Assembly (NCBI GenBank): GCA_964505305.1
Contig: CAZDHE010000003.1
Coordinates: forward strand, 1-53,946
Reading direction: 5' to 3'
DNA: 53,946 bases
Source: an uncultured Bdellovibrionales bacterium
GTDB lineage: Bacteria > Patescibacteriota > Minisyncoccia > Moranbacterales > DUUL01
Shown here: piece by piece, positions 1,895 through 52,600 of the stretch
Position numbering within the stretch: the stretch's first letter is position 1
How the letters are laid out: each line of letters opens with the position of its first letter
The notes under the pieces: model-generated
What the model saw: the letters and a program-made list of their open reading frames with translations, nothing else
Database searches by the model: none
What the model was told of the DNA's origin: nothing
Made by a program: the position numbers and the translations under genes

Positions 1895-2148
1895 ATGCTT
1901 CCTTTGATGGTTTTTGGAAACGGCCCCTTGATACTTAAACTCAAAACTAAGATGTCAACTAACAATCCCGGGTACTCAGGGACGGGAAGATAGAGAATAA
2001 GGAGTAAAAAACAAAGGGCGAGAACTTGAAATGTCAAATGTCAAACCCGCTCAAATGTCAAATCAATGACAAATGACTAAGCTCAAATATCAAATGAAAG
2101 GGGTAAGGGTTCAATAAGTCAAAAGTCAAAATGACAGCTCAAAAGTCA

Positions 2149-2190
2149 ACCCGGTGGAACTCTTGCGAAGCAAGATTGTTCCACTCGGGT
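2149..2190. repeat. Palindrome family C (42 bp hairpin)
   Basis: ACCCGGTGGAACTCTTGCGAAGCAAGATTGTTCCACTCGGGT; copies at 3451-3492 and, inverted, 52418-52459. Confidence 0.85.
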
Positions 2191-2447
2191 CAAAGCCACG
2201 GCTCAAAGCTAAAAGTTTAAATAGAAGCAAGAGGTAAGTATTAAGAGGCAAGGGATTGAAATGACAAATGACAAACCCGCCCAAATGACAAATGAATAAA
2301 TGACAAATGACCGCCTATTAAGGGGCAAGGGGCAAGGGAAGAGAAACTCAAAGCTCATCCCGAGTACTCGGGACAAAAGTCAAATCTACAACTTAAAGTT
2401 CAAAGCTACGGTTAAAAACTTAAATCTAAAATTTACCTAAATTAAAA

Positions 2448-2641
2448 ATGTCTGATAATAAAACTAAGCCCAATAATTTAAAACACTGAGCCTATTGCCT
2501 CTCCTTGGAAACAGCCTCTGAAAAACGGAACTGATTACGGAAAAACCAACCAAGAATCCAAAAGATTTGAAAGAAATTAAAGAAAATTCCAATATGCTAG
2601 CCTCAAGCATCTTAACTATGAAAAACAAGGAAGAACATTAA
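2448..2641 (+). pseudogene. Internally deleted four-helix-bundle protein relic
   Basis: ATG-SDNKTKPNNLKH*AYCLSLE at the start and LKEIKENSNMLASSILTMKNKEEH* at the end, resembling LLKETIEIANILGTSILTLKGKKK of 47343..47729. Confidence 0.7.
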
Positions 2642-2870
2642 AACGTAAAAGTTTTGACTTTTAAGTTGTGGCTTTGAGATTTGACTTTTGAGATTTGACT
2701 TTTAAGTTCTGCGGATGCAGAAGTCGAACTTCAGGGTTTTTTCGAAAAAAGTTGCTGGTTTAAACGCATAATATCAATCCTGATTACTCAGGACAAATGT
2801 CAAATATTAAATCAAATCCTAATATCAATCCCGGGGGCTCAAAATCAATTATGCTAACTAAATAAACTTA

Positions 2871-3243: not shown

Positions 3244-3334
3244 AACAATCCCCCTTTTTATAAATTTTGGTTCCCTGGGAAACTCTGTGGTTAAATATAA
3301 TAAAATGACTTCAACCGAGCAAACTTCATAGATT

Positions 3335-3670
3335 CAATGACAAAAGTCAAACCCGTGCAAATGTCAAATCAAAGAAGCAAGAAGTAAGTATTAAGGGGGC
3401 AAGGGGTTGAAAATTCAATCCCGAGTACTCGGGACAAAAGTCAAAAATCAACCCGGTGAAACTCTTGCGAAGTAAGACTGTTCCACTCGAGTCAAAGCCA
3501 CAGCTCAAAGCTCAAAACAGAATCAAGGAGAAAGAAGCAAGAAGCAAGGAAACTGAAGTTCGAATTCTGCGGATGCAGAAGTCGAACTTCAGGGTTTTTT
3601 CAAAAAAAATTGCTTTGGCAAAAATACGCAACATCAATCCCGAGCACTCGGGATTGAGTTTTGAGTTTTT
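3335..3670. repeat. Gene-less heptamer-arm cassette with nested palindromes of families A, B, C
   Basis: CAAATGTCAAATCAAAGAAGCAAGAAGTAAGTATTAAGGGGGCAAGGG nearly identical to 47196-47245; family B at 3418 and 3634, C at 3451, A at 3553. Confidence 0.8.
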
Positions 3671-4899: not shown

Positions 4900-5069
4900 T
4901 TTTTTATTTTTGTAACTGATTTTACGCGAGTTGATAAATTAGCCCTGCTATAGAAAACCCTAAAGTTTAAATTCTGCAGCCACGAAAATCAAACTTCTAT
5001 CCGCCAATGTGAATAGAAAATACACATTGGAGAATGTGTGTGTAATATCAGTTATTGACTTTTTGAAAG

Positions 5070-5153: not shown

Positions 5154-5292
5154 TCTTTAGTTGTAAAGTGTGAAAGTGAGGGCAATTGAGAAAGTGGAAA
5201 AGAGTGATTCACCTAAGCCTGCTTGAAGGCAGGCAGGTATCTTCCCTTAAATTCCTTGCTTCTTACCCCTCACCCCTTGCTACTAATTTATG

Positions 5293-5363: not shown

Positions 5364-5534
5364 AAAACTTCTTAAGATTGTAACACCAATCAAATCAAAA
5401 ATCAATCCTCGCCCCGAGTAACGAAGAAGAAAATAGCAACAAGAGGTGAACAGCAAGTAGTAAGGGAAATATCTTCCTGTCCACCCCCTAAACCAGACAA
5501 ACAGTGTTTGTCGGGTTTAGTTAAAAAAAGGCAA

Positions 5535-5735
5535 ATTTTAGAAATCCAAATGACCAAACTCAAATTTCAAATCAATGTCAAATGATAGAAGGCCAATATC
5601 AAGTTTTGGTCTTTGAAATTTAAAATTTGAATTTCAGTTTAATTCATTTTGCATTTTATTCTATCATTTTGATTTTTGACCTTTGATTTTTGAATTTTCA
5701 ATCCCTTGCCCCTTAATACTTGCTTCTTTTGTTTG
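5535..5735. repeat. Gene-less heptamer-arm cassette
   Basis: 5624-5730 is the reverse complement of the upstream flank (~47210-47320) of the four-helix-bundle gene. Confidence 0.75.
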
Positions 5736-5761
5736 TCGTTTCAAACCCTAGTCCCTTACTC

Positions 5762-8571: not shown

Positions 8572-9854
8572 TAAAAAATTTGATCGCAGCCTTTTTGGTA
8601 AGAATATTTTACTAAATCTCCCCTTCTTATTTTTTCCCCTCCGATTTTTTGCAAATCGCCCTTGATGTCAAAACTAAAACGGCTTTTTCCAACAAAGGTT
8701 TTTTCTTGTCTATTTAATCTTTCCACTACCAAATCCATTTCCCGATCTTTAAAATTGGCTAACTTTTCTTCTCTTAATTTATCGCTCAACTCGCGAAGAC
8801 TCCGGGAGCGAGCAGTTTTATCCGCTTTTGAGTTTTTGGATCGCAATTTTGCCGCCGCGGTTTTTGGATGCTCGGAATAAGTAAATACATGGATTTTGGA
8901 AAATCCGATTTTTCGGCAAAATTCCCGGGTTTCTTCAAAATCATCATCCCCCTCCCCGGGAAAACCGACTACAACATCCGTGGTTAAACAAATCCGAGGA
9001 ATTTCTTTTTTTAAAAAAGCAACCTTTTGAATAAAATCTTTTTTCCGATAAGGTCTATTCATAAGCTTTAAAATTTTATCGCTCCCGGATTGAGCCGGAA
9101 TGTGAAGGTGCGGGCAAATTCGGGAGTTTTGCTTGATTAAGCCGGCAATTTCAGGGGTAATCTCGTTAACTTCAATAGAGCTTAAACGAATCCTTTTTAT
9201 TTCAGTTTCCCGTAAAATATTCTCCAATAAATTTTCTAATTTAATTTGCCCCGACTTATATCTCCCAATATGGATACCGGTCAGCACCACTTCTCTATAA
9301 CCGGCTTGCTCGGCTTTTCTTATTTCCCTTATAACATCTTCGGGATTTTTATTTATTTTTTCTCTTCTGGCGTATGGAATAATACAGTAGGAACAAAATT
9401 GGTCACAACCGTCTTGAATTTTCAAAAAATATCGGTTCTTGCTTCTGTCGGATAAGGCGATTTTTTCCTTAATTTGATTTTTTCTGTTGGCCAAGTTTAA
9501 AAAACACTCCAATTCTCGCAATGTCTCCCGGGGATGTTGATGATTAACCGAAGATAATTTAATATCCTTGTCTAAAATTTGTTCCAGCAACTCTCGATAA
9601 ACCGCTACAGCGCAACCCGTCACAAAAATTTTTACCCCGGGGTTTTCTTTTCGAGTTTTTTTAATGGCTTTTTGGCTTTTATTGAAAGCGCTTCGGGTAA
9701 CAGCGCAGGTGTTTATTATGACAAAATCACCCTCTTCTTCCCCGCCTAACTCTATTTTTTCAAAACCGTATTTTTTAACCAGCCGGGAAATTAAAATCCC
9801 GCTATCATATTGGTTAACCTTGCACCCAAAAGTGATTACTTTAAACTTTTTCAT
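8571..9854 (-). CDS. mtaB: tRNA methylthiotransferase MtaB (MiaB-like radical SAM)
   Basis: TFGCKVNQYDS, INTCAVT, VTGC, KIQDGCDQFCSYCIIPYAR, HVFTYS. Confidence 0.9.
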   Translation of the reverse strand: MKKFKVITFGCKVNQYDSGILISRLVKKYGFEKIELGGEEEGDFVIINTCAVTRSAFNKSQKAIKKTRKENPGVKIFVTGCAVAVYRELLEQILDKDIKLSSVNHQHPRETLRELECFLNLANRKNQIKEKIALSDRSKNRYFLKIQDGCDQFCSYCIIPYARREKINKNPEDVIREIRKAEQAGYREVVLTGIHIGRYKSGQIKLENLLENILRETEIKRIRLSSIEVNEITPEIAGLIKQNSRICPHLHIPAQSGSDKILKLMNRPYRKKDFIQKVAFLKKEIPRICLTTDVVVGFPGEGDDDFEETREFCRKIGFSKIHVFTYSEHPKTAAAKLRSKNSKADKTARSRSLRELSDKLREEKLANFKDREMDLVVERLNRQEKTFVGKSRFSFDIKGDLQKIGGEKIRRGDLVKYSYQKGCDQIF

Positions 9855-11722: not shown

Positions 11723-11936
11723 TTTGGAAGTTTAATTTTTAGGATTAAAAAAAATACCAACTAATTAATCACTAATGTTATGTGTTAAGGCTATCTTTTT
11801 TGAAAAACCTCTAATGTTTGACTTCCGCATTTGCAGAAGTCGAAAGTCTCTCCCCTTACTTTTTGCTTCTTGTCCCTTTTATTTGCCATTTGAGCTTTGT
11901 CATTTGTCATTTCAACCTCTCTTACCCCTTAGCTCC

Positions 11937-45414: not shown

Positions 45415-45512
45415 AAGAATGGCATTAAGATTTAAATATCTCTCCTCTCTTTTGTTATTACAAAAAGAAAAGAATTGTTTTTTAATAAAATGTAAAAGAT
45501 TAGCTTCAAAAT

Positions 45513-47006
45513 ATGTCTTCCAAAGTTTATTCCGCGTCTATTTATGGAATGGAGGGAAAATTAATTGAAATCGAAGTGGATACCGCGCCCGGCCAGCCGG
45601 TTTTCAATATTGTGGGGCTTCCGGATGCCGCCGTAAAAGAAGCCAAAGAAAGAGTTACCAGCGCTATCAAAAATTCCGGTTTTAAGTCTCCTAATTTTTT
45701 CGGGCGCATTACCGTTAATTTGGCTCCGGCGGATTTGAAAAAAGAAGGCCCCTTTTTTGATCTGCCTATAGCGTTAGGTTTTTTGTTGGCTTCCAAACAA
45801 ATATCTTCCTTGCCCAAAAGTTCTGTTTTTATGGGAGAATTGTCTTTGGATGGCAGACTAAGAAAAATTAAAGGAGCTTTACCGGTGGCGCTTTCTTTAA
45901 AAGAAAAAGGAATGAAAAACCTTTTTTTACCTGAAGAAACCGCCCCGGAGGCTAATTTGGCCGAAGAAATAAATGTTTTTCCGGTAAAATCTTTGAAAGA
46001 CTTCACCCAAGCCTTAAACAAAAATGTTTTTCAAAAATTGCCCAAAAAAGATTTAAGCGATTTCTTCTTGCAGGAAGATATGGAAGATTTTGACTTTTGT
46101 TATATTAAGGGGCAAGAACATGCCAAAAGAGCCTTGGAGATAGCTGTATCCGGAGGTCACAATATTCTTCTCTCCGGTCCTCCGGGTTCGGGAAAAACTA
46201 TGCTGGCCAAGTCCGTAATTTCCATAATGCCGGAAATGAGCAAGCCCGAGTCTTTTGAGGTTACCAAGCTTTATTCGGTGGCCGGTTTAACTGACAACTC
46301 CCGGCCGCTTATTGCCAACAGGCCCTTTCGCAATCCTCATCACAGTTCTTCTCCTGTTTCTTTGGTAGGAGGAGGCGTTTTTCCCAAGCCGGGGGAGATT
46401 TCTTTGGCCAATCGGGGAGTTTTGTTTCTGGATGAATTTCCGGAATTTTCCAGGGAGCTTATTGAAAATCTTCGCCAGCCCCTGGAAGATGGAACAATTT
46501 CTATTTCCAGAGCTCAAGGGTCTTTAAACTTTCCGGCTCGTTTTATGCTGATTGCGGCTATGAATCCTTGTCCTTGCGGAAACGCCACTGATCCGGAAAA
46601 ATTTTGCACTTGCACGCCGGCTCAAGTTTCTCGCTATAAAAGAAGGCTTTCCGGGCCTATTTTGGATCGCATAGATCTACATATCGAGGTTCCCAGGTTA
46701 AAGTTTGAAAAATTATCCGGTAACAAACCGGCCGAAGAAAGCAAAAAAGCCAAAGAAAGGGTGGTGCGCGCCCGGGAAATTCAAAAAAACAGATTCAAAA
46801 AACTTTCTTTGATAACCAATTCCGAAATGAACACCAAACTTATAGGGCGATTTTGTCCTATTGGAGAACCGGAAAAACAACTCCTCAAATCCGCCATCAA
46901 TCAAATGAATTTATCTCCCAGGGCTTATCATAGAATTTTAAAAGTAGCTCGCACCATAGCGGATTTATCGGGAGAAAAAAATATAAACACCAATCATTTA
47001 GCCTAG
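45513..47006 (+). CDS. comM: ComM/YifB Mg-chelatase-like AAA+ helicase with premature stop about 10 codons from the end
   Basis: IVGLPD, NLAPADL, GPPGSGKT, PFRNPHH, GVLFLDE, NPCPCG, ARTIADL; in-frame continuation after TAG reads AVQFRFKEE* (to 47036). Confidence 0.93.
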   Translation: MSSKVYSASIYGMEGKLIEIEVDTAPGQPVFNIVGLPDAAVKEAKERVTSAIKNSGFKSPNFFGRITVNLAPADLKKEGPFFDLPIALGFLLASKQISSLPKSSVFMGELSLDGRLRKIKGALPVALSLKEKGMKNLFLPEETAPEANLAEEINVFPVKSLKDFTQALNKNVFQKLPKKDLSDFFLQEDMEDFDFCYIKGQEHAKRALEIAVSGGHNILLSGPPGSGKTMLAKSVISIMPEMSKPESFEVTKLYSVAGLTDNSRPLIANRPFRNPHHSSSPVSLVGGGVFPKPGEISLANRGVLFLDEFPEFSRELIENLRQPLEDGTISISRAQGSLNFPARFMLIAAMNPCPCGNATDPEKFCTCTPAQVSRYKRRLSGPILDRIDLHIEVPRLKFEKLSGNKPAEESKKAKERVVRAREIQKNRFKKLSLITNSEMNTKLIGRFCPIGEPEKQLLKSAINQMNLSPRAYHRILKVARTIADLSGEKNINTNHLA

Positions 47007-47141
47007 GCGGTACAGTTTAGATTTAAGGAAGAATAGTTGAGTATAAGCAAGAGAATAGAAACTCCCCTCCTCAAAAAAGCTTATTCCACCGAGCGGCCAT
47101 TCAGTTTTCTCTTCCCTTAGGGGGCGGGAGTGTATAAATAA

Positions 47142-47330
47142 ATGACAAATGACTAAGCTCGAATGTCAAATCAATGTCAAATGACAAACTCGTCCAAATG
47201 TCAAATCAAAGAAGCAAGAAGTAAGTATTAAGGGGGGCAAGGGATTGAAAATTCAAAACTCAAAGGTCAAAAGTCAAAATGACAGAACAAAATGCAAAAT
47301 GAATTAAACTGAAATTCAAAGATCAATTAA
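47142..47330 (+). repeat. Left heptamer-repeat arm of the four-helix-bundle cassette
   Basis: ATGACAA/ATGTCAA, GAAGCAA/GAAGTAA, AAAATTC/AAAACTC/AAAGGTC/AAAAGTC 7-mers. Confidence 0.8.
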
Positions 47331-47342
47331 AATAATAAAGAA

Positions 47343-47729
47343 GTGCAAATGCCGGCAGACAATGAAAAAGAAAAATTTAAAAAAGAGTTCACTCAAAGAC
47401 TGATCAAATTTTCCCTAAAAATCATTAAATTTTGTGAAGAACTAAAAAAAGATAAAGTATTTTGGAGTATCACAGATCAGCTAATCCGATCTTCCACTTC
47501 AATTGGAGCTAATGTGACAGAGGCTAAATCCTCAGGATCCAAAAAAGATTACATCCACTATTTTCAAATCTCCCTTAAATCAGCTAATGAAACCAAATAC
47601 TGGTTATGCCTCATCAAAGAATCATATCCAAAACACCGAGAAAAAGCCAACAAACTATTAAAAGAAACCATAGAAATAGCTAATATTTTGGGTACAAGTA
47701 TTTTAACGCTAAAAGGCAAGAAAAAATAA
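47343..47729 (+). CDS. Four-helix-bundle protein (23S rRNA IVP / bAvd-like family)
   Basis: QLIRSSTSIGANVTEA, ISLKSANETKYWL signatures. Confidence 0.92.
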   Translation: MQMPADNEKEKFKKEFTQRLIKFSLKIIKFCEELKKDKVFWSITDQLIRSSTSIGANVTEAKSSGSKKDYIHYFQISLKSANETKYWLCLIKESYPKHREKANKLLKETIEIANILGTSILTLKGKKK

Positions 47730-47910
47730 TTTTTAATTTTTAATTGCCATTTTGATTTTTGATTTTTGATTTTTGAATTTTTAATCCCTTACTTCTTCCT
47801 TCTTGATTCTTACTTCTATTTTAAGCTTTGAGTTATAGTTTTGACTTTTGACTTTTGACTTTTGAATTCTCAAACCCTTGCCCCCTCAATACTTACTTCT
47901 TGCCCCTCAA
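47730..47910 (+). repeat. Right heptamer-repeat arm, inverted relative to the left arm
   Basis: TTTGATT x3, TTTGACT x3, CCCTTGCCCCCTCAATACTTACTTCTTGC (reverse complement of 47215-47243). Confidence 0.8.
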
Positions 47911-47981
47911 TCCTGCTTGGTATTTCAAATTATTGCTTTTTCTTTTAATTTTAGATATAGTATGAGAGAAATTTGAGAAAT

Positions 47982-48052
47982 GGTCGCGTGGCCGAGTGGT
48001 TAGGCAAGGGTCTGCAAAACCCTGTACCCCGGTTCAATTCCGGGCGCGACCT
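47982..48052 (+). tRNA. tRNA-Cys(GCA)
   Basis: GGTCGCGTGGCCGAGTGG, AGGGT CTGCAAA ACCCT, GGTTCAATTCC. Confidence 0.94.
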
Positions 48053-48136
48053 CCGGCTTGTTTTCCGGTTGTTTAGTTTTCCGGTTTGCCGGTGTTTCAA
48101 ATCTATGGAAAGACCAAATAACTAAACAGCTAAATT

Positions 48137-48221
48137 GCCCGGGTGGTGGAATTGGTAGACACGAGGGACTTAAAATCCCTTGGGATTAAATCCTGTGCGG
48201 GTTCGATTCCCGCCCCGGGCA
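48137..48221 (+). tRNA. tRNA-Leu(TAA)
   Basis: GCCCGGGTGGTGGAATTGGTAGAC, AGGGA CTTAAAA TCCCT, long variable arm. Confidence 0.94.
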
Positions 48222-48346
48222 CTGAACTTTAAAACTAAAAACTTTCTTGAAGCCTCTGATTTTACAAAAAGTATGTTTTGATTTATGCTGTAAGAAAGTT
48301 GTTTTTGTAGTTGTTTAAAATAAGCCAAATTTAATAAGAAACTGAA

Positions 48347-49441
48347 ATGTCCGGTTTTATACAAAAAAAAGTCCAATCTTACACATTGGGAGAACGATTG
48401 AAAAAAATTAGAGAAAACGCGGGGGTTTCCTTGGCGGAGGTTTCCAATTTTACCAAGGTAAAACAAGAGCATCTTCAAAAAATTGAAGAAGGAGATTTTG
48501 ACAGCCTTCCTCCCGATGTTTATATCCGAGGATTTATCAGAAGTTATGCCAATTATCTCGGGCTGGATCCCAAGGAAGTTCTTAAGTATTACGACAGAGA
48601 GATAGGCGTTTGGAATAATATTAAGAAAAAACAAAAACCCTTAGCGGAGAACAAGAGTTTCCCGGACAAGTTTTTAGGATTATTTAGCGGTATTGTTATA
48701 ACACCCAAGCTTTTTACTTTTCTTTTCTTCTTTTTGGGTATAGCCGGGCTTTTTTCTTACTTTTATTTTGAAATAGAAAAGTTTTCCGAAAATCCCAGAC
48801 TGGTTTTGTTTCAGCCTATTAATGAAGAGTCGGTCAATAAAAGCTCTCTGGAGATAGCCGGGGTTACGGAAAGCGAGAACAAGATTAGAATTAACGGGCA
48901 GCCGGTTCAGGTTAACGAAAAAGGGGAGTTTAAAGAAACTTTGGGTTTGCGAAAAGGCATTAATGAGATTGTTGTGGAGGCTGAGAATAAAGTGGGCAGA
49001 GTCAGCAAGAAAAATTTAAACATTTCGGCCGATTTTGAATTAGCTTCCGTTAAAGGATCTCAAAATGAAAGAAAGCAATCAGAAGAAGAGACGGGCGAGT
49101 TTGAGTTTTCTGTTGAAGCTAAGGATGACCCGGTGTGGATTTTGGTGGAAGTGGATGGAAAGAAAAAACAAAATGGAACCATGCTGCCGGACTCTGTGCA
49201 AACATTTAAAGTGAGCGATCAAGTACGGCTAACCTCGGGCAAGGCCAACAAAACTTTTATTCAGATAAACGAAAAAGAGAAGCAGAAACTGGCTGAACAT
49301 CCGGGAGTGGAGAGGGGTGTTGTATTTGACAAAGAAGGAAAAGTGAAAGAAAATGCAGAGGATGATGAAAAGCATTTGTCCGAAGAGGATTCTGAAGAAA
49401 AAAAGAAAGAAGACAAAGAAGACAAGGGGGAGGAAGGTTGA
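48347..49441 (+). CDS. RodZ-like protein (HTH, TM helix, extracellular beta domains)
   Basis: LGERLKKIRE...IEEGDF...YIRGFIRSYANYLGLD, TM helix, VWILVEVDG C-terminal domain. Confidence 0.8.
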   Translation: MSGFIQKKVQSYTLGERLKKIRENAGVSLAEVSNFTKVKQEHLQKIEEGDFDSLPPDVYIRGFIRSYANYLGLDPKEVLKYYDREIGVWNNIKKKQKPLAENKSFPDKFLGLFSGIVITPKLFTFLFFFLGIAGLFSYFYFEIEKFSENPRLVLFQPINEESVNKSSLEIAGVTESENKIRINGQPVQVNEKGEFKETLGLRKGINEIVVEAENKVGRVSKKNLNISADFELASVKGSQNERKQSEEETGEFEFSVEAKDDPVWILVEVDGKKKQNGTMLPDSVQTFKVSDQVRLTSGKANKTFIQINEKEKQKLAEHPGVERGVVFDKEGKVKENAEDDEKHLSEEDSEEKKKEDKEDKGEEG

Positions 49442-49588
49442 CCCAAAGGACTTATTTGCTTTTAGTGTTAAAAATACTTTCTTAGATATTAATAGAATCG
49501 AATTATTATGATTTTGGATTTAGCGGTTGACTGTTCAAGATTTTAAAGAATTTAGGGAGGGAATTAAAAATTAAATTTACTTACAACT

Positions 49589-52109: not shown

Positions 52110-52180
52110 GGACTGTTTCCAAATATCATTTCTGCTTTAAATTTCATCTTTTTTGCTAAATTTCTCAAAATTTTTTGCCT
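52110..52180. mobile_element. Left part of the ~160 bp MITE
   Basis: GGACTGTTTCCAAATATCATT...TTTTTGCTAAATTTCTCAAAATTTTTTGCCT colinear with 35867-35939. Confidence 0.65.
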
Positions 52181-52298
52181 CATCAAAGAATCATATCCAA
52201 AACACTGAGAAAAAGCCAACAAACTATTAAAAGAAACTATAGAAATAGCTAATATTTTAGGTACAAGTATTTTAACGCTAAAAGGCAAGAAAAAATAA
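52176..52298 (+). pseudogene. 3' fragment copy of the four-helix-bundle gene
   Basis: 123 bp matching 47607-47729 with 3 mismatches, one of them CGA->TGA. Confidence 0.88.
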
Positions 52299-52394
52299 TT
52301 TTATGTACAGAAACTTCAAAATACCCATATCCTGCTAATTTTACGCGAATTACTATACAGATTTACGCGGACACTGAATATGCGAAGTTTAATT

Positions 52395-52600
52395 TTAGAT
52401 TTTTAATTGTCATTTTGACCCGAGTGGAACAATCTTGCTTCGCAAGAGTTCCACCGGGTTGATTTTTAATTTTTGACATTTTAGTTTCTCTCCCTTTGCT
52501 TCTATTTTAAGCTTTGAGTTATGGCTTTGACTTTTGAATTTTGAATTTTGAATTTCTTTCCCCTTGCCCCTTGCTTCTTGCTTCTTGCCCCTTGTCTTCT
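52395..52600 (+). repeat. Right heptamer arm with nested family C palindrome
   Basis: CTTCTATTTTAAGCTTTGAGTTAT shared with ~47813-47836; TTTGAAT, CCCCTTG and CTTCTTG repeats. Confidence 0.75.

Follow-up and report, generated by a model that had tools for sequence, protein, structure and literature searches.

The window analysed here, a stretch of 53,946 nt from a Patescibacteria genome of roughly 1 Mb that is 88% complete, probably contains an intact copy of an intervening-sequence (IVS)-type hairpin element living outside rRNA. As reconstructed, the unit would centre on a gene of about 125 codons, encoding a basic four-helix-bundle protein of the intervening-sequence protein (IVP) family, with a 5′ arm of 7-nt repeats and a short leader ahead of it and, behind it, a 3′ arm reverse-complementary to the 5′ arm. 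Such a hairpin-armed IVP cassette outside rRNA looks like an IVS-type element whose gene family is known and for whose architecture no description was found in the literature. The parts of the locus and its neighbours are as follows, with the means of detection in brackets.

45513..47006, plus strand: upstream host gene, a ComM/YifB-like Mg-chelatase-family ATPase (PF01078, E 1.8e-91)
47136..47208, plus strand: outer A-rich array of AAATGAC/AAATGTC with periods 7 and 11 (TRF, inverted-repeat search, fold)
47209..47305, plus strand: 5′ arm, GCAAGAA/GTAAGTA, GGGGCAAGGG, then TCAAAAC/GTCAAAA heptamers (inverted repeats, TRF, fold)
47306..47348, plus strand: leader from the 5′ arm to the start codon (sequence inspection)
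47349..47729, plus strand: intact IVP gene, 126 aa from ATG, with an alternative GTG start at 47343
47724..47811, plus strand: inner copy of the 3′ arm, TTTTGAT heptamers, then CCCTTACTTCTTCCTTCTTG (inverted and direct repeats, TRF)
47818..47905, plus strand: outer copy of the 3′ arm, TTTTGAC heptamers, then CCCTTGCCCCCTCAATACTTACTTCTTGC (inverted and direct repeats, TRF, fold)
47982..48222, plus strand: downstream host genes tRNA-Cys(GCA) and tRNA-Leu(TAA) (tRNA calls)

The open reading frame (47343/47349..47729, plus strand) encodes 128 or 126 aa, and a weak AAGAAG lies 6–12 nt upstream of the ATG at 47349. A sequence-only reading of the window had taken it for an IVP/bAvd-like four-helix-bundle gene, and profile searches agree: the protein matches PF05635 with E 2.1e-22 and 79.8 bits (cut-off 33.8) and TIGR02436 with 93.7 bits (cut-off 24). 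It also matches PDB 2RLD (5 chains) by sequence with E 3e-15, and its fold, as predicted in this way, is a four-helix bundle. The protein has a pI of 9.7 and a net charge of +11.7, and IVP proteins are basic in general (median pI 9.3). The Q..R...S...N..E motif is retained; Q44, S51, N55, E58 and E81 are invariant across the eight PF05635 paralogues of the genome, and R, S, N and E across 14 NIAEG-type family members. The family kinship with Avd that the sequence-only reading had named is seen in the NIAEG-type paralogues, which match NF033474, though below its cut-off. Avd is a pentamer and binds nucleic acid. In PMC4990558, Xcc0516/S23p is cited as a homopentamer, and the family motif was named (G)xxRxxxSxxxNxxE by Zhang 2013 (PMC3936711).

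The period of 7 nt recurs on both sides of the ORF, with TRF arrays at 47140-47206 and 47248-47279 upstream and at 47727-47785, 47750-47781 (96% matches), 47788-47817 and 47839-47865 (100% matches) downstream. Four inverted pairs were found: 47233-47300 with 47818-47885 (68 nt, 79%), 47239-47305 with 47724-47790 (67 nt, 79%), 47214-47236 with 47881-47903 (23 nt, 96%), and 47209-47234 with 47786-47811 (26 nt, 85%). The 3′ arm is tandemly duplicated (47729-47790 vs. 47818-47879, 76% identity), so two alternative stems are possible; the outer copy (47818..47905) is the pairing partner in the minimum-free-energy fold. The idea that the A-rich heptamers are mirrored by T-rich reverse complements holds for 47209-47305 but not for the outer array at 47136-47208, for which no complementary partner was found downstream. 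Similarly, of a near-perfect inverted pair put at about 29 bp, 23 nt at 96% stand, whereas a pair of about 30 nt needs an extra mismatch and a 1-nt indel. It had been suggested that a transcript could fold into a long stem enclosing the ORF, and RNA folding of 47130-47915 gave −176.4 kcal/mol vs. −130.2 ± 7.2 for shuffled sequences (n = 20, z −6.4), with 0/20 shuffles as good. Terminal complementarity enclosing an ORF in a predicted stem, by which an rRNA IVS is recognized, is present in the window cassette.

A search for RNA runs covering 46900-48300 gave none. In the assembled DNA contigs of four runs, compared with 45500-49500, one joint skips from 47232 to 47795 (562 nt; one contig each in X2, X3 and X6; 23-nt side), and a second skips from 47336 to 47725 (388 nt, approximately the ORF; one contig in X1; 21-nt side). 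Since the sides are short and lie within repeats, these joints may stem from other loci or organisms.

Related sequences elsewhere in the window are listed below.

2029..2708, plus strand: member of the five-copy dispersed family of deleted derivatives; it comprises A-rich arms, an IVP ORF shortened by an internal deletion (2448-2640) and, at 2649-2708, a T-rich arm
3334..3548, plus strand: gene-less 5′-arm set; 3334-3418 has 92% identity to 47171-47256
5154..5291, minus strand: purine-rich/pyrimidine-rich heptamer hairpin occupying the tRNA-Leu/tRNA-Pro spacer (repeat comparison)
5535..5730, no strand assigned: gene-less arm set adjoining tRNA-Pro; 5626-5728 on the minus strand has 93% identity to 47216-47320
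11850..11935, no strand assigned: solo T-rich arm with CTTGCTT and GTCATTT units, flanked by two minus-strand genes
52176..52600, plus strand: truncated copy of the intact IVP gene at 47349..47729, of which the last 40 codons are kept (52176-52295, 97.5% aa identity)

The earlier count of one intact and two decayed copies is upheld: the copy at 52176-52295 has an in-frame TGA from CGA, and after it come about 90 nt of unrelated sequence, then a hairpin module of 45 nt and finally, up to 52600, a T-rich 3′ arm, and the copy at 2448 is internally deleted, the element that holds it (2029..2708) folding with z −5.4. Gene-less arm sets had been placed at 3335, 5535 and about 11860; all are present, but the hairpin at 5535 is only modest (5525-5740, z −2.8, 3/200 shuffles equally good) and the last is a solo arm. 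In a same-genus genome, G001, the same tRNA-Leu/tRNA-Pro spacer holds a hairpin of other units.

All eight PF05635 genes of the source genome (8/8) have repeat arms, and the heptamer units differ between paralogues. Flank complementarity was measured as a local alignment score, RNA duplex energy of the 250-nt flanks having been dropped as low for all genes. On this score the eight IVP genes rank 3, 4, 5, 11, 12, 14, 536 and 743 among 834 genes, six of the eight lying within the top 14 (Mann-Whitney p 0.0011), so that the proposed association of arms with this gene family holds genome-wide; 2/8 cassettes fail to exceed shuffles on the strict arm score. Other cargo was considered for the high-scoring non-IVP genes and ruled out, their scores being accounted for by a separate MITE of about 170 nt and by neighbouring gene-less hairpins. 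Intergenic tandem repeats with a score ≥ 40 are dominated by periods 7 (65 arrays) and 14 (37 arrays), as opposed to 0 for period 6 and 14 for period 8. Dimers of GTCAAAA and of GCAAGAA are present at about 68 and about 63–70 other loci, with 105–133 matches vs. 21–31 for shuffled 14-mers. The genome has 85 array loci, 7 of them with an IVP gene, and dozens of gene-less arm derivatives; arrays of the units TTTAGGA and AACCAAT are present with no IVP gene in this 88%-complete assembly. Arrays also bracket tRNA-tRNA spacers and, in G001, one tRNA.

The same arm families are found in rRNA. The 23S gene of the genome (C8:24420-28443) is 4024 nt long vs. a 2925-position model and contains at least seven heptamer-hairpin insertions, including the sites of helices 9, 25 and 45, which are classical IVS sites; two of the insertions, in two helices, are identical in sequence. 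Cassette arms match 23S hairpins at 88–93% over 27–41 nt. The 23S insertions of these arm families are without an IVP gene, and 0/8 IVP genes lie inside the 23S gene, the window copy being located between the comM-like gene and tRNA-Cys. G001 has another hairpin type at the helix-9 site. Because gene-less hairpins of the same kind occur in spacers and in 23S helices, the element reads as a mobile intervening element outside rRNA. A gene for RNase III is present in the genome.

It has been reported that the IVS of Coxiella has a 28-bp terminal stem with the S23p ORF in its loop and is cut mid-stem by RNase III (Warrier 2016, PMC4990558), and IVP ORFs were described in CPR 16S and 23S insertions (Tsurumaki 2024, PMC11270868). 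The cassettes resemble the ORF-bearing 23S/16S rRNA IVSs of Leptospira, Coxiella burnetii, Haemophilus and Brucella in having an IVP-family gene in the loop, terminal inverted repeats that can form a long stem, a probable lack of a promoter of their own, and a sporadic distribution suggesting horizontal transfer. Unlike these IVSs, none of the eight cassettes of the genome is located in rRNA, all being placed between genes for proteins or tRNAs; their arms are tandem 7-nt repeats differing between copies; the 3′ arm of the window cassette is duplicated; dozens of gene-less derivatives accompany them; and cutting by RNase III is putative for the window cassette.

Similar cassettes are found in other genomes. 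PF05635 occurs in 158/301 sampled Patescibacteria genomes, and in 83/131 cassettes from other Patescibacteria the arms score above the maximum of 30 shuffles, with a median arm of 34 nt that lies 14 nt ahead of the start codon and 4 nt past the stop; in 51/72 arms the best lag is 7. The remaining 48/131 do not exceed shuffles on the strict score; by eye, short arms are seen in 7/8 inspected low scorers, and one low scorer (L066) has an upstream array alone and is fused to a 376-aa ORF. In about a dozen other phyla (Bacteroidota, Acidobacteriota, Desulfobacterota, Firmicutes, Planctomycetota and others), arms are present in 55/75 analysable loci and lag 7 is best in 45/52 of the armed loci tested, and the same architecture is seen in GC-rich phyla with quite different units. 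Among 41 relatives, which are mutually related and not independent, IVP copy number is correlated with RTCAAAA-dimer matches at a raw rho of 0.52, the reversed-pattern control giving 0.42, and with the excess over control at a Spearman value of 0.27 (p 0.085); relatives without an IVP match still show a small unit excess.

Stop codons are frequent in the arms: there are 11.3 per 100 nt in 5′ arms vs. 5.8 in 3′ arms (59 vs. 16 loci), 336 stops vs. 257 ± 10 in shuffles, and stops in all three frames in 42/83 arms vs. 20.8 expected. In the consensus unit a stop triplet is no commoner than composition predicts (54/75 vs. 50.7), and TAG, AGT and GTA are the only enriched triplets. Stop codons were therefore rejected as the cause of the unit sequence, and the stop excess is largely a product of C-poor composition and a TAGT-like core.

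Gene and arms are one heritable unit: arm similarity is 0.195 at protein identities below 30%, 0.34 at 60–70% and 0.60 at 70–86%. In its behaviour the unit resembles a mobile or exchangeable module: at the DNA level it has been swapped, lost and copied, with gene-less derivatives left behind. The syntenic spacer between a pyruvate-kinase-like gene and a tRNA is filled by a cassette in the source genome and contains gene-less arrays of other units in the relatives G002, G001 and G006, as the comparison of filled and empty loci suggested by the sequence-only reading reveals. The paralogous loci C9 and C4 have flanks that are 91–95% identical around wholly different cassettes, the gene and the 3′ arm having been replaced together. 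An internally deleted derivative is present in five dispersed copies that are 82–92% identical and differ by 7-nt indels, and 320/324 cassette pairs (≥55% identity) have no shared flank. These data support the selfish-element pattern of intact, decayed and gene-less copies that had been noticed in the window; strict synteny, which would speak against it, is broken overall by the swap and the gene-less spacer and is kept by the C21 cassette, syntenic in G001 and near the same gene in G012. Some copies are thus old and vertically inherited, the C21 cassette being syntenic across genera. At filled and gene-less spacers, where element ends are blurred by repeats, no target-site duplication was seen. 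The IVP is the sole product encoded by the cassette, and the absence of a transposase or reverse transcriptase (RT), noted before for the element, extends to the 88%-complete genome as far as profile searches for RVT_1 and Y1_Tnp go.

As a rule the unit takes up the entire spacer separating two host genes of the same direction: the 5′ arm starts at a median of −2 nt from the host stop codon (n = 65), and the 3′ arm ends at a median of +4 nt from the next start codon (n = 64). Cassettes are co-oriented with co-directional flanks in 92/99 cases, which is no higher than the rate among ordinary genes of the genome (513/568). The window copy sits more loosely than is typical: the arrays begin 130 nt past the comM stop, and a gap of 77 nt precedes tRNA-Cys. 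These gaps mean that it may have its own promoter. A sigma-70 scan, which says little for this phylum, gave no promoter excess at 46800-48300 (4 vs. 3.8 expected), and no terminator-like site was found 3′ of the comM-like gene (45513..47006). The spacer between tRNA-Cys(GCA) and tRNA-Leu(TAA) is also repeat-rich, and an Rfam scan of the window returned tRNAs only. Mismatches in the arms comprise 187 G.U vs. 184 A.C in the 83 significant arms and 294 vs. 256 (p 0.11) in all 131 cassettes; an asymmetry in the first 37 loci (92 vs. 67, p 0.057), considered as a sign of RNA-level selection, was gone at 131. The six rRNA-borne hairpins have 32 G.U vs. 18 A.C, too few for a positive control. Since no sense-strand wobble excess is seen in the arm mismatches, RNA pairing need not be the selected trait.

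The following course of events may be proposed for the IVS-type element. A cassette without its own promoter would be transcribed by read-through from the comM-like gene toward tRNA-Cys, and its paired arms would form a long double-stranded RNA stem that host RNase III could cut, by analogy with ORF-bearing rRNA IVSs. Such cutting would release the IVP mRNA as a loop closed by the stem and would separate the flanking RNAs. The basic, probably pentameric IVP would bind the repeat hairpin. Arm complementarity would be maintained by a DNA-level process such as copying, arm-to-arm conversion or slippage by 7, and it is the lack of a G.U excess among arm mismatches that points to such upkeep rather than to selection on RNA pairing.

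A wider reading is put forward tentatively, namely that the IVP and the heptamer hairpins belong to a single pan-bacterial class of mobile 'intervening element'. As parts of this same tentative reading, the elements would settle at harmless transcribed hairpin sites such as rRNA helix tips, operon spacers and tRNA spacers; the IVP would be the factor recognising, making or moving the 7-nt-repeat hairpins; the C-poor, TAG-rich 5′ arms with their 7-nt period would put stops into every reading frame on each inward-facing side and so insulate host translation whatever the frame of insertion; and the class would explain the long-noted heptamer-repeat excess of bacterial genomes. Over-represented heptameric repeats include the cyanobacterial STRR. 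Others are the GGGAATC arrays of Xanthomonas, which are intergenic tandem heptamers with 70–75 convergent (inverted) pairs (Rehm 2015, PMC4692102), and the GGACCGG elements of Geobacter metallireducens, which are over-represented intergenic heptamers (PMC2700814). A cassette in a deltaproteobacterial MAG (L179) has GGGAATC/GGGGTCG arms, and the 5′ arms of the cassettes are C-poor, the same convergent polarity as in the Xanthomonas heptamers; unlike the cassettes, the Xanthomonas and Geobacter repeats have been discussed as G-quadruplexes or regulator binding sites (PMC4692102, PMC2700814). The passages of these papers compared here, whose lists of neighbouring genes may bear on the question, tie the repeats neither to an IVP gene nor to IVSs of rRNA, and, within the literature covered, nothing was found that connects IVP genes with arms, heptameric or inverted, outside rRNA.

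Of the other explanations, a DNA-level hairpin transposon system, in which the heptamer hairpins are non-autonomous, the IVP acts in trans to make, keep or move them and any RNA stem is a by-product, is rather unlikely. REPINs, with a RAYT gene flanked by its own repeats, are the comparison system. Like MITEs and REPIN/RAYT, the elements are hairpin-forming, multi-copy and intergenic, with a coding copy flanked by its own repeats and non-autonomous derivatives, and the combination of terminal inverted repeats with dispersed multi-copy derivatives that marks MITEs and DNA transposons is present. This account is consistent with the symmetric G.U and A.C mismatches, the recurrence of several IVP-flanking units as gene-less sets elsewhere, the amplification of a deleted derivative to five copies, the identical hairpin in two 23S helices, the 7-nt indels between copies, and the basic IVP (median pI 9.3) with its invariant polar residues. 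However, the cassette has no transposase and the IVP is its sole product, the genome yielded no Y1 transposase, the arms are built of a tandem repeat whose unit varies, not of a fixed terminal sequence, target-site duplications were not seen, TTTAGGA and AACCAAT arrays occur without an IVP gene in the 88%-complete assembly, and IVP copy number correlates weakly with hairpin abundance. We know of no nuclease or recombinase chemistry in a 120-aa four-helix bundle.

It is improbable that the hairpins are a general, fast-evolving spacer structure arising by in-place slippage for processing, termination or insulation, with the IVP merely landing or being kept in their loops. Different-unit hairpins in orthologous spacers of four species would fit such an origin, as would the presence of IVP in just 7 of 85 array loci, the tRNA-tRNA spacers and the G001 tRNA bracketed by arrays, and the small unit excess in genomes without an IVP match. 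Against it, arm sequences vary together with IVP phylogeny in different genomes and contexts, the arms lie close beside the ORF (14 nt and 4 nt), the gene and 3′ arm were replaced together in the C9/C4 swap, and the architecture is repeated in GC-rich phyla with different units. Very improbable, and largely refuted, is a resident regulatory gene whose pairing 5′ and 3′ UTRs control mRNA stability or translation and whose extra copies are plain duplications of an immobile gene: the orientation is as for ordinary genes, one cassette is syntenic across genera, and the ORF is intact with its family motif kept, yet the filled vs. gene-less spacer, the C9/C4 swap, the dispersed deleted copies, the 320/324 related pairs in unrelated contexts and the same hairpins within the 23S rRNA gene all contradict it. 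A remnant or accessory (Avd) gene of a diversity-generating retroelement is hardly credible, since, despite a homologous, basic four-helix bundle (PMC10053308) and NF033474 matches of 31–46 bits in NIAEG-type paralogues, the window protein has no NF033474 match and the paralogues stay below the 80-bit cut-off, no RT (RVT_1) was found in the 88%-complete genome, and the flanks are simple heptamer arrays that lack a template/variable repeat pair.

An IVP gene has also been described in a cas operon, flanked by cmr3 and cmr2 at distances of 86 and 6 nt, and read as having a CRISPR-associated function (Zhang 2013, PMC3936711); IVP in cas operons is listed as well in Altae-Tran 2023 (PMC10910872). 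Like the window cassette, the cas-operon IVP is a small gene wedged between two operon genes; arms are unmentioned in the part of the former paper that describes it (PMC3936711). In the light of the IVS-type element, IVP genes in cas and other operons are more likely cassette insertions than functional partners. Heptamer hairpins are also a source of assembly breaks and of false 'CRISPR-like' or tandem-repeat calls in small genomes. Cultivable carriers exist, as records from Sphingobacterium, Flavobacterium and Thiohalocapsa indicate. To our knowledge, no function has been established for the IVP/S23p family since the first report of ORFs in rRNA IVSs (1993), and bacterial heptamer repeats have been noted for decades without an explanation. 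The proposed element would tie the two together in one unit of defined anatomy, with the bridge to rRNA IVSs contained in a single genome.

The ORF at 47349-47729 encodes 126 aa from its ATG (an alternative GTG lies at 47343) and, in profile searches, matches PF05635 (E 2.1e-22, 79.8 bits) and TIGR02436 (93.7 bits), the four-helix-bundle "23S rRNA intervening-sequence proteins" (IVPs); its closest solved structure by sequence is PDB 2RLD (E 3e-15). The protein is basic (pI 9.7, charge +11.7) and retains the invariant Q/R/S/N/E positions of the family. Period-7 arrays lie 5' (47140-47206, 47248-47279) and 3' (47727-47865) of the ORF, and the 5' arm at 47209-47305 is complementary to two tandem copies, 47724-47811 and 47818-47905, either of which can pair with it. 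The arm pairs span 67-68 nt at 79% match, and their GC-richer feet reach 96% over 23 nt and 85% over 26 nt. The sequence-only reading, which placed an IVP-like ORF between inverted 7-bp-periodic arms at 47142-47910, is thus confirmed as a real observation; its claim that the A-rich 5' heptamers are mirrored 3' holds for 47209-47305 and fails for the outermost array (47136-47208), which has no complementary partner. The proposed transcript stem with the ORF in its loop agrees with the predicted RNA fold of 47130-47915, at -176.4 kcal/mol against -130.2 +/- 7.2 in 20 shuffles (z -6.4). An Rfam search of the window returned tRNAs and no other known RNA family, a promoter/terminator scan around the cassette (arms, leader and gene) gave no excess, and a search for RNA runs containing this stretch found none.

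Neighbours of the window cassette and dispersed elements of the source genome (C with a number denotes a contig; C3 is the window)
Window, ending at 47006: comM-like (ComM/YifB-like) ATPase gene, upstream neighbour
Window 47982: tRNA-Cys, downstream neighbour
C3:2300-2760, C12:1640-2180, C19:12600-13230, C8:30500-31060, C14:1-560: five-copy deleted-IVP family
Window 2148-2195, 3450-3495, 52418-52462, also C9, C14, C23: ~45-nt module / 16-nt palindrome
Window 4915-5056, fragments 2708-2745, 3566-3600, 11815-11850: ~170-nt element
C5:17100-17400, C5:19230-19400, C34, C26, C16: other sites of the ~170-nt element

The source genome, G000, is a Patescibacteria genome of 994,510 bp (57 contigs, 88% complete) with eight PF05635 genes, and all eight carry short tandem repeats 5' and their reverse complements 3', in differing units (for example GTCAAAA/GCAAGAA, TAGCTTT, GAAAGTAGA, TTTGTAA, CAAAGCC and GAATTTT). 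When flank complementarity was scored by locally aligning 300 nt of upstream sequence with the reverse-complemented 300 nt on the downstream side, these genes ranked 3, 4, 5, 11, 12, 14, 536 and 743 among 834 (Mann-Whitney p 0.0011); the gene family and the arms are associated in this genome. Other cargo genes, suggested by the non-IVP high scorers, were rejected, these scores being accounted for by the ~170-nt MITE and adjoining gene-less hairpins. The intergenic tandem repeats of G000 are dominated by periods 7 and 14, with 156 arrays at 85 loci, seven of which contain an IVP gene; GTCAAAA dimers occur at ~68 other loci and GCAAGAA dimers at ~63-70, both several-fold above shuffled 14-mers.

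The generality of armed cassettes was tested INDEPENDENTLY. Of 301 Patescibacteria genomes sampled, 158 carry PF05635, the highest copy number per genome being 15; this tally includes the unpublished genome G183, which enters no other result. Starting from 138 cassettes (8 from G000, 29 from the 301-genome search and 101 ORFs in 100 further loci), removal of five near-duplicates (>85% aa identity) and two with short flanks or N left 131, and in 83 of these the arms exceed the maximum of 30 shuffles. In this set the arms have a median length of 34 nt, with medians of 14 nt between the 5' arm and the start codon and 4 nt between the stop and the 3' arm; arm self-match is 0.557 at lag 7 versus 0.26-0.34 at other lags, the best lag being 7 in 51 and 8 in 15 of 72 arms. 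Seven of the eight printed low scorers show 2-4 complementary units by eye, and the eighth, L066, has an upstream array only (GACAGGT/AACAGGG); L066 (G059:C5) is a fused form, a 376-aa ORF whose N-terminal part is the IVP domain. A second scan covered species-representative genomes and gave 80 loci in Bacteroidota, Acidobacteriota, Desulfobacterota, Firmicutes, Fibrobacterota, Planctomycetota, Verrucomicrobiota, Nitrospirota, Ignavibacteriota, Chloroflexota, Gammaproteobacteria, two Methanophagales MAGs and Patescibacteria; arms exceed shuffles in 55 of the 75 analysable loci, and of the 52 arms that are 24 nt or longer, 45 have 7 as their best lag. A near-identical unit, AGTGGTT, lies beside IVP genes of Thiohalocapsa and of Ruminococcus, Pirellulaceae and Chthoniobacterales MAGs (L175, L181, L203, L233), which would reflect either cross-phylum transfer or convergent adoption of a favoured unit.

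Arm similarity rises with IVP identity (0.195, 0.203, 0.220, 0.259, 0.339 and 0.597 in ascending bins; Spearman 0.20), and among the 324 cassette pairs whose proteins are at least 55% identical, two have both flanks in common, two have one and 320 have none (tblastx, 1e-5). These comparisons show gene and arms to be one unit that occurs in unrelated contexts. The aligned 5' arm overlaps the upstream stop codon by a median of 2 nt (it starts ahead of that codon's end in 36 of 65 cases), and the median gap between the 3' arm and the start codon that follows is 4 nt (n=64). A typical cassette thus takes up the entire spacer, with no room for a promoter or terminator. At the window cassette the fit is looser, 130 nt and 77 nt of additional spacer being present. 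IVP genes are co-oriented with co-directional flanks in 92 of 99 cases, which does not exceed the genome baseline of 513/568; co-transcription with host genes fits this arrangement and is not proved by it.

At the window site itself, the comM-like gene and tRNA-Cys are not adjacent in two same-genus genomes, making direct comparison impossible, and no IVP homologue occurs in 11 comM loci or two tRNA-Cys loci of relatives. In the same-genus relative G001, tRNA-Cys is flanked by inverted TTAATTG/CAATTAA heptamer arrays (L022, G001:C2, ~9580-9823), and a repeat hairpin makes up the tRNA-Cys/tRNA-Leu spacer of G000, G001 and G002. Filled and empty loci could be compared at C11:7746, where the cassette lies between a pyruvate-kinase-like gene and a tRNA, fills their spacer and, through its arm, provides the final codons and stop of that gene; in the relatives G002, G001 and G006 this spacer measures 182-308 bp, lacks an IVP gene and is occupied by heptamer arrays in three other units. 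The cassettes at C9:32685-33395 and C4:44595-45283 lie within a segmental duplication, with flanks 91-95% identical, and differ in their 3' arms and in the subfamily of their IVP gene; the break on the left falls within GCAAGAA repeats. The duplication (C9:30871-33782 / C4:42763-45670, 83-95% identical) takes in a long non-coding leader and the beginning of a paralogous gene for a secreted protein, the differing cassettes lying between. The tRNA-Leu/tRNA-Pro spacer carries a heptamer hairpin in G000 and G001, in different units. Strict synteny is therefore not the rule, given the filled and gene-less spacer and the C9/C4 swap; by contrast, the C21 cassette is conserved in synteny in G001 and, in another genus, is found close to the same gene. 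Filled and gene-less spacers, where the element ends are blurred by repeats, showed no target-site duplication.

The decayed copies proposed at 2448 and 52176 were borne out: 52176-52295 is the last 40 codons of the window IVP (97.5% identity, CGA changed to TGA), and 2448-2640 is an IVP ORF with an internal deletion which, with its arms, is one of five dispersed copies. An unrelated ~90-nt insert (tgtacagaaacttcaaaatacccat...) at 52300-52390 separates the truncated IVP end from its 3' arm. The five copies are 82-92% identical over 190-500 nt, with 7-nt indels between them in places; a single deletion derivative has therefore multiplied in MITE-like fashion. The gene-less arm sets reported near 3335, 5535 and ~11860 likewise stand, as copies of the window 5' arm at 92-93% (3334-3418, 5626-5728) and a solo arm (11850-11935). 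Nested within arm sets, and present in 23S insertions too, are a ~45-nt hairpin module (caacccggtggaactcttgcgaagcaagattgttccactcgggtc) and a palindrome of 16 nt (cccgagtactcggg), which suggests insertion of hairpins into hairpins. A separate ~170-nt element is bounded by inverted repeats, ctgatgttacgcgc ... gcgtaacatcag, and contains a hairpin, gaagttcgacttc..gcagaagtcgaacttc, with T's after it; the element lies beside housekeeping genes in both orientations and imitates 'armed' genes in flank-complementarity scans.

The 5' arms contain little C (G.256, A.380, T.271, C.093; C.117 in the other-phyla set) and the 3' arms correspondingly G-poor, a polarity that belongs to the element and not to gene direction, because a hairpin reads alike on both strands. 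Stop triplets number 11.3 per 100 nt in 5' arms versus 5.8 in 3' arms (59 versus 16 loci, p 7e-9), and all three frames are stopped in 42 of 83 5' arms versus 20.8 in shuffles; in the consensus unit TAG is enriched (28 of 75 versus 15), as are AGT and GTA, and stops as a class are not. It is tempting, though not established, to read the 7-nt period as a barrier of stops in all three frames that faces in both directions. Selection on sense-strand RNA pairing should make G.U far exceed A.C among arm mismatches. This excess is absent (187 vs 184 in the 83 clear arms, 294 vs 256 in all 131), a hint of bias in an early 37-locus sample (92 vs 67) having been lost in the larger set; six distinct 23S hairpins give 32 vs 18, too few for calibration. 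Since G.U does not far outnumber A.C, arm complementarity is probably renewed mainly at the DNA level, with which an RNA role is still compatible.

The reading of the cassette as a selfish element is supported by the multiplied deleted copies, the filled, empty and swapped sites and the unrelated contexts. As had been stated, it carries no transposase or reverse transcriptase: it encodes the IVP alone, and neither RVT_1 nor Y1 transposase was found in the 88%-complete assembly. Across 41 relatives, IVP copy number correlates only weakly with the abundance of one hairpin unit. The closest known system is the ORF-bearing rRNA intervening sequence (IVS), whose anatomy, RNase III cutting and S23p have been described (Warrier 2016, PMC4990558); the design is the same, here outside rRNA, and the present element has 7-nt-repeat arms and abundant gene-less derivatives. 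IVP ORFs have been reported within CPR rRNA insertions (Tsurumaki 2024, PMC11270868), and 18 IVP genes within cas loci (Zhang 2013, PMC3936711); a DGR survey equates PF05635 with Avd-like proteins (PMC10053308). Heptamer excess, with 70-75 convergent GGGAATC pairs, has been described in Xanthomonas (Rehm 2015, PMC4692102), and heptanucleotide elements in Geobacter (Aklujkar 2009, PMC2700814). No link between IVP genes outside rRNA and inverted heptamer arms is made in the relevant passages of these papers, and literature searches turned up no other paper that makes it.

The single 23S gene of G000 (C8:24420-28443, minus strand, L250) is 4024 nt long against a 2925-position model and contains at least seven insertions, each a predicted long hairpin with heptamer-array arms.

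Insertions in the 23S rRNA gene of G000, by model position (Infernal alignment)
~165, helix 9: 125 nt
~285: 148 nt
~583, helix 25: ~140 nt
~665: 193 nt
~1218, helix 45: ~105 nt
~1405: 89 nt
~1760: 182 nt

An eighth is likely near C8:25109-25250, and the helix-9 and helix-25 insertions are identical in sequence. Units CTCAAAAGTCAAA and TTCAAAA/TGCAAAA/CTCAAAA belong to the arm family of the window cassette, GAATTTT is the unit of the C22 cassette and GTAATTA that of C11:4174; cassette arms match 23S insertions at 88-93% over 27-41 nt, and a small palindrome, tcccgagtactcggga, is common to the window arm sets and the insertions. In the G001 23S gene the G000 ~665 hairpin type occurs at three places, the helix-9 site included; rRNA sites, too, therefore exchange hairpin types. 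By position, the 23S hairpin insertions of G000 are gene-less IVSs. Mid-stem cutting by RNase III is established for ORF-bearing IVSs (Warrier 2016, PMC4990558). Because gene-less IVSs of the same units lie in the 23S gene and G000 has an RNase III gene, the window cassette would, by analogy, be expected to undergo the same processing.
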